A stretch of DNA of 27,254 bases from Pseudothermotoga sp. (GTDB taxonomy: Bacteria; Thermotogota; Thermotogae; Thermotogales; DSM-5069). The notes under the pieces were generated by a model. The model was given only the letters and a program-made list of their open reading frames with translations. It searched no databases and was not told the origin of the DNA. The DNA lies in contig JBEPZZ010000006.1 in NCBI GenBank assembly GCA_041640575.1, positions 1,606 to 28,859 on the forward strand. The letters are read 5' to 3'. Positions within the stretch are counted from its first letter, which is position 1. Each line of letters begins with the position of its first letter. Below are positions 458-2,274 of this stretch, piece after piece. Both the position numbers and the translations under genes were made by a program.

Positions 458-679
458 GTGAATAATTTCGAGCAAGAAGTCATTCAACGTATTACACGAT
501 TAGAAAGCAAAGTAGAAGAGCAAGGGAGTGATATCAAGGAAATAAAAGATAAAATGAACGGGTATTTAGAAAATAAGATCAAATCAACAGTTAAAGCAAT
601 GTTTGGAGAGATTCTTATAGCCGTGATCACTTCAACAGCGTTTATAAGCTTTATCTTAAGCCGTTTGTTTGGGAGGTAA
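458..679 (+). CDS. Small phage membrane protein (N-terminal coiled coil plus C-terminal TM helix), XhlA-like/holin-like
   Basis: GTG start preceded by GAGGTGA. RITRLESKVEEQGSDIKEIKDKM is heptad-like and ILIAVITSTAFISFIL is hydrophobic. Lies directly upstream of the lysin. Confidence 0.65.
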   Translation: MNNFEQEVIQRITRLESKVEEQGSDIKEIKDKMNGYLENKIKSTVKAMFGEILIAVITSTAFISFILSRLFGR

Positions 680-717: not shown

Positions 718-1218
718 ATGATGATCCCAGTAAATCTAAAAAACCTTGTCACGGCATACTATAACGACTTTGTTTCTGAGTTCAATATTCAAGATTTTCC
801 AAAGCTACATAACGTGTTTGCAATTATTAGTATGGAATCTTCTTGGCAACCTGAAGCACAATCGCCATACGCACGTGGCTTGATGCAAATATCCCAACCG
901 GCGCTTGAAACAATTAATAGGCTCTATAACAAAAAATTCACTTATCACGACATGTTGCGTGCAGACCACAATGTTTTTGTTGGAATACGATACTTACGCT
1001 GGTTGTACAAAGCATTGTCACATTTAGAACCAACGCAGTGTGAGATTGCTACCGTAATGGCATATAACTGGGGTATTGGAAATGTCCAAAATTGGCTGTC
1101 TTTAGTAAAAGACAATCCACAAATCAAAAAGGAAGTACCGCAAGAAACAAAAGATTATGTTGTTTCGTATATTTACTGGTGTGAATATTGGAAAAAGAAT
1201 TTGAAGGTGAAAACATGA
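718..1218 (+). CDS. Soluble lytic transglycosylase (SLT) domain protein, probable phage endolysin
   Basis: Family 1 LT motifs: catalytic ES (MESS), ARGLMQI, AYNWGIGNV and ETKDYV. RBS GGAGGTGA. No signal peptide. Confidence 0.9.
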   Translation: MMIPVNLKNLVTAYYNDFVSEFNIQDFPKLHNVFAIISMESSWQPEAQSPYARGLMQISQPALETINRLYNKKFTYHDMLRADHNVFVGIRYLRWLYKALSHLEPTQCEIATVMAYNWGIGNVQNWLSLVKDNPQIKKEVPQETKDYVVSYIYWCEYWKKNLKVKT

Positions 1219-1566
1219 AATTCGATTTAAACATTTGGAGAGCAATACACGGTTGAAATAGATGAAAATGCAATAACAGAGGCATGTGAAGATCTTGGAA
1301 TAGATGTTGAATCTACAACAGGTCTTCATCTTAGTGATTATCACAAAATCCTTGTATCACCAATGCAAGATCGTCAAGAGATTGTGCAAACACTGCTACA
1401 TGAAGTACTGCATGCGATTGGAACCGTGTCAGGTCATACGATTTTGGCTCATTCTACAAGAAAGAATGAAGCGTTTGTGAATATGCTTGCTACTGCACTA
1501 ACGCAATTATTCAATCAAGAGAATTTTATGGTTTTTATTAACAATAATCTACGAAAGGAGGAGTGA
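1215..1566 (+). pseudogene. Phage HEXXH metallopeptidase-like protein with a frameshift near the 5' end (~1233)
   Basis: ATG 1215 overlaps the lysin stop (ATGA) with RBS GAAGGTGA, but that frame stops at 1254-1256. The adjacent frame is open from 1231 to 1566 (FGEQYTVEID...TLLHEVLHAI) with no start codon before 1363. Confidence 0.7.
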
Positions 1567-1568
1567 AC

Positions 1569-1799
1569 ATGGTAGAACTTTTGTGGGCAATTGTTGGTTT
1601 TGTAATTCCCTTCATTCTCTCTTGGATTTTCGCAAAGATCAATCCAGCAAAGTTCGTAAGTTGGCTTTCAAAGATGCTTGCGAAAGTCTTGAAAAACGAG
1701 GAAGCGAGGAACAAGGTCGAAAACGAAATAGGGCGACTCTTAGTGGAACTTGGGAACGCGATAATCAGCATTACTCCAGATGAGAACGAAAAAAACTGA
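1569..1799 (+). CDS. Holin-like small membrane protein (76 aa), ending on a slippery heptamer
   Basis: AGGAGG RBS favours ATG 1569 over GTG 1563. N-terminal TM helix LLWAIVGFVIPFILSWIFA, then an amphipathic basic segment. Lies in the lysis module and ends GAA AAA AAC TGA. Confidence 0.7.
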   Translation: MVELLWAIVGFVIPFILSWIFAKINPAKFVSWLSKMLAKVLKNEEARNKVENEIGRLLVELGNAIISITPDENEKN

Positions 1800-2098
1800 C
1801 CAAGCCTGTCGTGGTAGCTGTTGACGTCATAGACTTGTTAGGCAAGACAATTGAATATCTCTCAGCAAAGCAGCCTTCAGCGCTGCTTGTTTTGTTTTCA
1901 ATCGTATGGAAGTATGTCAAACAAGAACAAGAAAGAATCAAAGCAATCAACGAAGCCGAGATCAAGTCGCTTGGAGAGACCTTCTCAATCTCGGTTGAGC
2001 AACTCGAACAGGGTTTAGAGGTTTTGAAGCAAGCTGAGATAAGGCAGACGGGACCATACAGCTTTGAGACATCGCCTTTCAAAAAGAAGTCCCAATAA
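1796..2098 (+). CDS. Hypothetical phage ORF (track: 1811..2098), probably expressed as a -1 frameshift extension of 1569..1799
   Basis: The frame is open across the A_AAA_AAC site (1790-1796) and is the -1 frame of the upstream gene. There is no Shine-Dalgarno before GTG 1811. Confidence 0.55.
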   Translation: MTKPVVVAVDVIDLLGKTIEYLSAKQPSALLVLFSIVWKYVKQEQERIKAINEAEIKSLGETFSISVEQLEQGLEVLKQAEIRQTGPYSFETSPFKKKSQ

Positions 2099-2131
2099 TT
2101 GCCCAATTGTCCTAATTCTGGCCCAATAATT
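2091..2131 (+). repeat. Four phased CC(C/T)AAT direct repeats, candidate integrase arm-type sites
   Basis: CCCAATAATT at 2091, CCCAATTGT at 2102, CCTAATTCT at 2111 and CCCAATAATT at 2122, giving 9-11 bp spacing. Confidence 0.6.
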
Positions 2132-2199: not shown

Positions 2200-2274
2200 T
2201 GGTAGCCCCACGGGGAATCGAACCCCGACCTTCGGACTGAGAATCCGATGGACTAGCCATTATCCTATGGGGCC
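2200..2274 (-). tRNA. tRNA-Glu (anticodon CTC)
   Basis: Reverse complement is GGCCCCATAGGATAATGGCTAGTCCATCGGATTCTCAGTCCGAAGGTCGGGGTTCGATTCCCCGTGGGGCTACCA. It has an acceptor stem GGCCCCA/TGGGGCT, anticodon arm TCGGA-TTCTCAG-TCCGA, a TTCGA T-loop and an encoded CCA. Confidence 0.97.

Follow-up and report, generated by a model that had tools for sequence, protein, structure and literature searches.

In Thermotoga, a fusion of phosphoglycerate kinase (PGK) with triosephosphate isomerase (TIM) arises via frameshifting at the 3′ end of pgk (Schurig et al. 1995, as cited in PMC4256274), and the same source cites the frameshift of the lambda G/GT tail assembly chaperone. The heptamer A_AAA_AAC is known from IS1, which the consulted portion of Sharma et al. 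(2014; PMC4066793) describes as "a proven case of frameshifting" with "no established stimulator" and names as a deliberately low-efficiency site. The identical heptamer lies at the junction of two open reading frames (ORFs), here called gene 1 and ORF2, in a stretch of 27,254 nucleotides (nt) from a Pseudothermotoga genome (G000:C6:1606-28859). This stretch is referred to as the window, and positions given without a contig are positions in it. Gene 1 encodes a small membrane protein of a prophage, and ORF2 follows it in the −1 frame. There is about an even chance that the two form one recoding unit, expressed via a low-level −1 shift that would be either ribosomal or transcriptional.

Shifts at the 3′ ends of genes extend phage capsid or tail proteins, providing a minor C-terminally extended form at a fixed ratio. 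Lysis genes offer other precedents for paired expression. The lambda S105/S107 holin-antiholin system uses a dual start to make two products at a fixed ratio, and the lysis gene L of MS2 is reportedly expressed via rare frameshifting or termination in the overlapping upstream gene (Kastelein 1982 and Berkhout 1987, both cited in PMC5009743).

Reports that place frameshifting itself near lysis genes are few in the literature searched. In Streptomyces BI phages, heuristic GeneMark frameshift predictions fall "near predicted holins" and endolysins, without tests (consulted text of PMC9671017). In the portion of the Atkins et al. (2016) review consulted (PMC5009743), the word "holin" is absent and "lysis" is used only for the RNA phage MS2. 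Among the papers retrieved on Thermotogae prophages and lysis, none is, by its listing, about an arrangement of this kind, and PMC13313380 does not bear on lysis genes. The preliminary description of this locus stated that no account of the arrangement was known. Within the literature searched this is correct for lysis-region genes of double-stranded DNA (dsDNA) phages, but the same geometry is known at pgk-tpi.

The gene 1-ORF2 junction and its conservation

Gene 1 (1569-1799, plus strand) runs for 76 amino acids (aa) from an ATG at 1569 to a TGA stop at 1797-1799, and a good Shine-Dalgarno match, AGGAGGAG (1556-1563, plus strand), precedes its start. It ends in GAA (1788-90), AAA (1791-93), AAC (1794-96) and TGA (1797-99), a reading that confirms the proposed slippery heptamer A_AAA_AAC (1790-1796, plus strand), in register with gene 1 and directly before its stop, within an A7 run at 1789-1795 (plus strand). 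In the −1 frame, a TGA (1781-1783, plus strand) terminates an ORF at 1583-1783 and closes the frame upstream, leaving it open only from 1784, through to 2095. A shift into ORF2 must therefore fall within 1784-1796. ORF2 itself (1796-2098, plus strand) comprises 100 codons (LTKPVV...KKKSQ), the first being the CTG at 1796, and stops at a TAA at 2096-2098.

No Shine-Dalgarno sequence precedes the candidate ORF2 starts CTG 1796, GTG 1811 or TTG 1892. Such a sequence, resembling (G)GAGGTGA, precedes all four of the other phage genes in the window (gene 1 and three more), in line with the initial account of an uninterrupted 100-codon frame that, unlike its neighbors, lacks a Shine-Dalgarno. The junction thus displays two hallmarks of programmed ribosomal frameshifting: an in-register X_XXY_YYZ heptamer and a −1 ORF that overlaps the site without initiation signals of its own, with the caveat that two relatives, L009 and L010, have a TTG as the first −1 codon.

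In a recoding unit of this type, most ribosomes would terminate at TGA 1797 and yield the 76-aa membrane protein. A minority, with the slowly decoded TGA as the next codon, would slip back by one base on A_AAA_AAC; adjacent stops promote shifting, as the "shifty stop" literature describes. Alternatively, RNA polymerase could slip an extra A into the mRNA, which ribosomes would then read through. Continuation in the −1 frame would provide a fusion of ~176 aa (...DENEKN-LTKPVV...) consisting of the gene 1 transmembrane anchor, a loose helical linker and the C-terminal helix-helix-hairpin domain of ORF2. The ribosomal shift predicts ...EKN-LTK... at the joint and the extra A predicts ...EKK-LTK.... 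The unit would close a late, lysis-region operon of a Thermotogota prophage family.

Junction DNA could be compared across three distinct lineages, represented by the window, by L006 (with L007 and L008 identical to it at the junction) and by L009 (with L010 identical at the junction). Two further variants, X7 and X2, derive from contigs of four public sequencing runs and were reconstructed from tables of differences and loose ends. X7 record 20 has 68 differences over 452 nt (15% diverged), and its listed changes at 1778-1788 give GAC AGC GAA CAA AAA AAC TGA, in agreement with protein P0008, which ends in PDSEQKN. For X2 records 7 and 8, a loose-end consensus abuts 1789 and yields GAC AAA GAA CAA AAA AAC TGA, with all 7 differences of record 8 at listed positions outside 1789-1800. 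The remaining X2/X7 records were read among the differences listed for them only, where absence from the list is no proof.

The A7-Y-TGA motif (Y being C or T) is kept in register in all five diverged variants. The heptamer reads A_AAA_AAT in L009 and L010. The two codons directly upstream differ among all five variants, a 6-nt indel included. In each of the five, the site encodes its lysine by AAA, after a codon whose third base is A; this count comes from few and related sequences and carries no statistical test. Elsewhere in gene 1 and ORF2 of the window, lysine codons are AAG in 12 cases versus AAA in 6. An equivalent −1 stop four codons before the YTG is also readable in L006 and L009, so that in these two lineages, as in the window, the −1 frame opens just 4 codons ahead of it. 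At the protein level, the nine relatives of gene 1 (41-77 aa) all end in KN, and the residues before this dipeptide vary in both sequence and number (NEKN, EEQKN, SEQKN, DDQKN, DEKN, EGETKN).

This pattern bears directly on the possibility that the pair is a broken gene, created by a one-base homopolymer loss in a decaying prophage, or by misassembly. A runs are error-prone and the neighboring HExxH gene does contain a 2-nt deletion. The same A7 and stop, however, are shared by assemblies made independently from four or more other sources, diverged by as much as ~30%, and no relative fused in a single frame exists among 1.84 billion representative proteins or 151 genomes of the phylum. The profile search of the representative proteins returned four matches, one of them a spurious 1080-aa coiled-coil row and the others no longer than 100 aa. 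The contigs from public runs, which drop minor variants, list no indel at 1789-1795, with parts of the stretch left uncovered in X6 and X16. Because no fused single-frame homologue is found, the split is not readily attributed to recent mutation or homopolymer error, and this explanation is largely refuted and very improbable.

Start signals, coding constraint and RNA structure

A second way to express the two frames would be termination-reinitiation, in which two separate proteins are made by coupling without a Shine-Dalgarno at the YTG codon or a nearby GTG and the A tract serves as an unstructured spacer. Several details fit such a scheme. The first −1 codon of L009/L010 is TTG, forming a TTGA overlap with the gene 1 stop. 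Two 100-aa database proteins are called from the YTG codon (P0003, which begins with L, and P0004, which begins with M). A GTG is also present as codon 6 of the window sequence, in no other variant, and, through a synonymous change, as codon 9 of the X2/X7 variants. In locus L014, a distant homologue of gene 1 is followed by a gene that begins through an ordinary ATGA overlap. An A7 run before a start codon also occurs in ordinary gene pairs, as at the overlap of queH (PF02677) with a DUF4940 gene in the same genome (G000:C41:10900-10910, L020). There, A_AAA_AAG-TGA coincides with a GTG start (A7-GTGA) preceded by GGGGTG; such a pair looks like a slippery site but is coupled in the ordinary way.

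Other observations speak against coupling. The first −1 codon is CTG, which is no canonical start, in four of the five variants (TTG in the fifth). No ATG, GTG or TTG occurs ahead of codon 33 in the L006 type, which is represented by 3 metagenome contigs and one contig from an RNA library. A purine block resembling a Shine-Dalgarno is found in none of the variants, whereas most true overlapping pairs of the genome keep one (138 of 221 ATGA-overlap sites genome-wide); the queH pair has its GGGGTG. Coupling also leaves the constant AAA lysine codon and the preceding A-ending codon unexplained. The Y position varies, synonymously in both frames, which fits a site that has no need of a start codon. 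No conserved start with its own ribosome-binding site, which would have undermined the original proposal, emerges from these comparisons. Termination-reinitiation is the main rival to a shift, possible but less likely than not. Gene callers, for their part, start ORF2 at five different codons (1, 6, 9, 15, and 30 or 33), and the resulting mis-starts make the annotation of these proviruses inconsistent.

Part of this scatter corresponds to a third arrangement, a shorter ORF2 initiated at the TTG of codon 33 (1892), or at codons 30/37 in some relatives, with 1796-1891 as an untranslated, hairpin-bearing spacer. The TTG at codon 33 is invariant, and proteins of 72-76 aa are called from about this point (P0005, P0016; ORF lists of L006 and L008). 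Strong purifying selection, moreover, is confined to the region past it: across codons 33-98, pN/pS is 0.141/0.697 for the window versus L006 and 0.275/0.722 for the window versus L009, in comparison with omega values of 0.41-0.70 for codons 1-32 (0.47-0.87 in the 0 frame). Against the shorter ORF2, the TTG lacks a Shine-Dalgarno and sits directly behind a hairpin, within a U-rich tract. The preceding 96 nt, at 27-32% divergence, acquire no stop and no indel in any variant. Codons 1-32 are stop-free in all three lineage sequences, with 2-5 stops in each of the other frames, and the indels listed for contigs elsewhere are compensating pairs only. In X2 record 8, all four single-base changes within codons 2-9 fall on −1-frame third positions, and a hydrophobic periodicity, in our reading, is conserved across variants. 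Initiation at codon 33 is unlikely on this balance. Codons 1-32 may instead be a translated, loosely constrained linker, for which the sequence evidence is modest; ORF2 appears to be a real gene whose 5′ end looks translated.

The 3′ stem postulated in the preliminary description (1801-1809 paired with 1829-1837) fails on each comparison made. For the 64 nt that follow the heptamer in the window, the folding energy is −8.5 kcal/mol (z = +1.42), which 191 of 200 shuffled sequences equal or better. Across the three diverged sequences, 63% of stem cells pair, a value equaled in 207 of 500 shuffles, and the RNAalifold consensus does not contain the stem. The sole flanking feature at the heptamer is the stop codon directly 3′ to it. 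A different element is conserved farther downstream: a terminator-like hairpin inside ORF2 (1868-1899, plus strand) with arms AAGCAGC and GCTGCTT, a 7-nt loop and a following tail, GTTTTGTTTTC. The window, L006 and L009 agree throughout its arms and U-rich tail, even at synonymous sites; the arms are also unchanged in the X2/X7 contigs, and the loop varies across all of these sequences. At 72 nt past the heptamer, this hairpin is too far away for a usual frameshift stimulator.

A −1 shift at the heptamer is still the best single explanation for a site and stop that are conserved together, although it must be weighed against a substantial list of contrary points. These include the details that favor coupling, namely the TTGA overlap in one lineage, the database proteins called from YTG, the GTG codons of the window and X2/X7, and the ATGA overlap in L014, together with the weak constraint on codons 1-32. 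The A7 run is shorter than the homopolymers of ~9 or more A/T at transcriptional slippage sites of the pgk-tpi and Thermus dnaX type, and thus than the A9 of pgk-tpi itself. A contig from an RNA library (X16, of the L006 form) reads A7 across the junction; the library may hold DNA, and contigs hide minor forms. Neither a conserved 3′ stimulator, for which 5-9 nt downstream would be the usual place, nor a conserved upstream element resembling a Shine-Dalgarno was found around the site, and shift efficiency may therefore be very low. Stimulators of this sort are not obligatory, IS1 having none established. Finally, ORF2 codons 1-32 were considered as the continuation of the C-terminal extension found in longer homologues of gene 1 (see below) and rejected, as the match to a hidden Markov model built from 10 long forms is not significant.

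The two products, their relatives and the prophage setting

The gene 1 protein has one strong transmembrane helix (residues 4-22, Kyte-Doolittle 2.38) followed by a helical, charged part. It belongs to no PHROGs family, its Pfam rows are all sub-threshold, and its ESM Atlas scores, to viral clusters, reach only 0.78-0.81 and give no usable match. GenBank phages contain no match to either ORF by tblastn. The label "holin-like" used previously draws on size, the single transmembrane helix and position, with an SLT lysin and an HExxH gene upstream, but no holin family in Pfam or PHROGs matches gene 1. Spanin character is also not apparent: cysteine occurs in neither product in a reading of the translations, and no spanin family matches. 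The further suggestions of a holin/antiholin pair, a spanin or a toga-disrupting component are backed by nothing beyond gene position.

ORF2 has no convincing transmembrane segment, its maximum Kyte-Doolittle value of 1.35 being under the usual threshold. An AlphaFold2 model (7-row alignment, pLDDT 76.3) predicts helices at residues 11-25, 27-49, 53-62 and 67-78 and a β-hairpin at 81-93, such that the conserved C-terminal part models as a helix-helix-β-hairpin unit. When the model was compared with the PDB by Foldseek, no match reached E <= 0.001. Winged-helix DNA-binding domains and a phage Xis head the weak matches, a lead only. Searches of ORF2 against Pfam and PHROGs returned nothing at or above threshold, the ESM Atlas provided no usable match, and protein matches number five. 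The C-terminal domain also ends a 263-aa ORF of L004 (862-1653, G001:C68) and of L018, where the last ~50 residues are common and the unrelated N-terminal part has a Cas4/PD-(D/E)XK-like look on reading. This ORF lies directly before tRNA-Met and tRNA-Leu, beside cI/Cro-like genes, and the locus probably represents a decayed remnant of a related phage. A scan of the genome-contig collection found no locus with query A1 and a single locus, L018 (the L004-type chimera), with query A3; query A3 found none in the viral-contig collection.

Because no family matches either ORF, function is inferred from position only. On that basis, the short form could be a holin-like or holin-associated membrane protein, with the long form carrying the same anchor plus a conserved soluble domain. 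A more specific version, in which the conserved signal sets a fixed ratio between the holin-like protein and an anchored, winged-helix-like long form acting as its regulator or partner (an antiholin, a timing factor or a DNA-tethering factor), is doubtful.

Distant homologues of gene 1 are sparse. A gene 1 profile has matches in 7 of 151 phylum genomes, the source genome G000 included; the match in G046 (L017, E 2.3e-4) was not used, as its translation looked unrelated. Four of the proteins found by the profile are long forms (93-97 aa), with 22-28 further in-frame residues past a conserved TPD/SDE motif, in contrast to the short forms of the window lineage, which stop ~5 residues after TPD. 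With database relatives included, the long forms comprise 10 proteins. A small transmembrane-protein gene directly follows the long form in L014, L015 and L016, and a C92 permuted-papain amidase lies downstream in L012, L014 and L016, neighbors that place the family in lysis cassettes. A multiple alignment puts the −1 continuation on the C-terminal extension of the long forms; shuffled tails score at least as well as the conceptual fusion in 139 of 500 trials for the window, 94 of 500 for L006 and 29 of 500 for L009.

At a separate locus, L013 (1483-1946, G107:C167), a gene 1 homologue ends in an A9 run, two codons ahead of its 0-frame stop. In the −1 frame a TAA immediately precedes the A9, and exactly there an ORF of 79 codons without a Shine-Dalgarno opens. 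This downstream ORF is unrelated to ORF2 and has its own ATG 13 codons in. It has no relatives beyond G107 itself in the 151 genomes and none among viral contigs, and L013 remains an anecdote because a conservation test has no relatives to draw on.

The prophage right end occupies window bases 1 to ~2190 and abuts a tRNA-Glu(CTC) gene (2200-2274, minus strand) that marks its end, after which host sugar-metabolism genes resume. Within it, a gene for a 73-aa protein with an N-terminal coiled coil and a C-terminal transmembrane helix (458-679, plus strand; XhlA/holin-like, weak matches only) is followed by an SLT lytic transglycosylase, the likely endolysin (718-1218, plus strand; PF01464, E 5e-16), a small HExxH gene (SprT/peptidase-like; 1215-1566, plus strand), gene 1, ORF2 and a terminator. 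The last of these is a strong palindrome between ORF2 and the tRNA (2148-2174). L009, on a 747-kb metagenome contig, has the identical gene order adjoining the same tRNA, which follows the module there too. The HExxH gene is broken relative to the intact 117-aa ORF of L009 by the 2-nt deletion, near its 5′ end, and is either broken in the prophage or mis-assembled. Upstream on the contig are a tail-fiber-like ORF and a metallophosphoesterase (PHROG "DNA repair exonuclease"); the gene for the latter is interrupted by a short N run (L002 ~1590-1605, G000:C6, just before the window), across which the frame cannot be judged. An antisense ORF of 111 aa (1771-2106, minus strand) that covers all of ORF2 was rejected as a shadow ORF, as it has one stop each in L006 and L009.

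The sequences of the window, L006 and L007/L008 part completely directly after AAGTCCCAAT (window 2088-2100; L006 ~660-680), at the ORF2 stop. Beyond this point, L006 proceeds into phage early genes (XRE-like, and RecT-like by reading of the translation) and L007/L008 into other DNA. The end of ORF2 is a module or attP boundary.

Genomic background and comparison with known systems

The frequency of such junctions in the source genome sets limits on what a single instance can convey. A scan for frames open at least 60 codons to the stop, with a −1 frame open at least 80 codons from the overlapping codon, found 941 sites. An X_XXY_YYZ heptamer lies directly before the stop in 10 of them, with ~3.7 expected by our arithmetic at equal base frequencies. 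The observation in one genome is therefore not beyond chance, and the weight comes from conservation in relatives.

The same scan recovered a natural control. At the pgk-tpi junction of this genome (G000:C10:33450-33490, L019/L021; scan position C10:33477), the sequence reads GAC AAA AAA AAA TAG. PGK (PF00162, E 4e-165) is followed by TIM (PF00121, E 3e-98) in the −1 frame without a start codon; the junction is the known Thermotoga PGK/PGK-TIM recoding site. Every one of the 41 genomes of the order that were searched contains TIM. An A9-A10 run marks the junction in 29 of the 30 loci read, with the 30th (L045) cut by a contig end. In L036 (A10) and L046, an in-frame fusion joins the two genes. 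Recoding on an A run, with the stop next to it and a −1 ORF that lacks a start, is demonstrably tolerated and put to use in the host lineage.

If gene 1 and ORF2 are indeed joined by recoding, a membrane, lysis-region gene would be added to the phage genes with 3′-end frameshifts, which so far comprise tail chaperones and capsid or tail extensions. Beside pgk-tpi, the Thermotogota would then have a second case of A-run recoding, carried by a phage, and the locus would be a convenient system in which to study frameshift tuning at 65-80 °C, where RNA stimulators melt. Should the long form act as a regulator at a fixed ratio, frameshifting would have a use undescribed for dsDNA phage lysis genes, achieved without RNA structure, as might suit high temperature. 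Mere stop-start coupling at a non-canonical CTG would make the locus ordinary.

Among lysis genes, gene L of MS2 differs from this locus in belonging to an RNA phage and in having a separate start, exposed by termination-reinitiation, with no fusion formed. Lambda S105/S107 derives two products from one lysis-region membrane gene, but the difference is N-terminal and due to alternative starts, with no C-terminal frameshift and no homology to gene 1. The lambda G/GT and capsid or tail shifts share a conserved slippery heptamer near the 3′ end; unlike these structural genes, gene 1 and ORF2 are the last of the late operon, behind the endolysin gene, and involve a membrane-anchored protein. The insA-insB' frameshift of IS1 is similar in its identical heptamer, its lack of an established stimulator and its low-level fusion of a small protein to a downstream domain (consulted portions of PMC4066793 and PMC5009743), but its product is a transposase, whereas gene 1/ORF2 is a phage late gene.

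The pgk-tpi junction differs in its A9-A10 run, kept across the order, where gene 1/ORF2 has A7 plus Y, and in joining two well-known enzymes that are fused in frame in some lineages (L036, L046), where gene 1 and ORF2 encode orphan phage proteins for which no in-frame form was found. It nonetheless resembles this locus in several respects: it lies in the same phylum and the same genome, has an upstream gene whose last bases before the stop are an A run, continues in a −1 frame that lacks a start codon and ribosome-binding site, and pairs a short product with a long fusion, the outcome that a low-level shift would give at gene 1 and ORF2.

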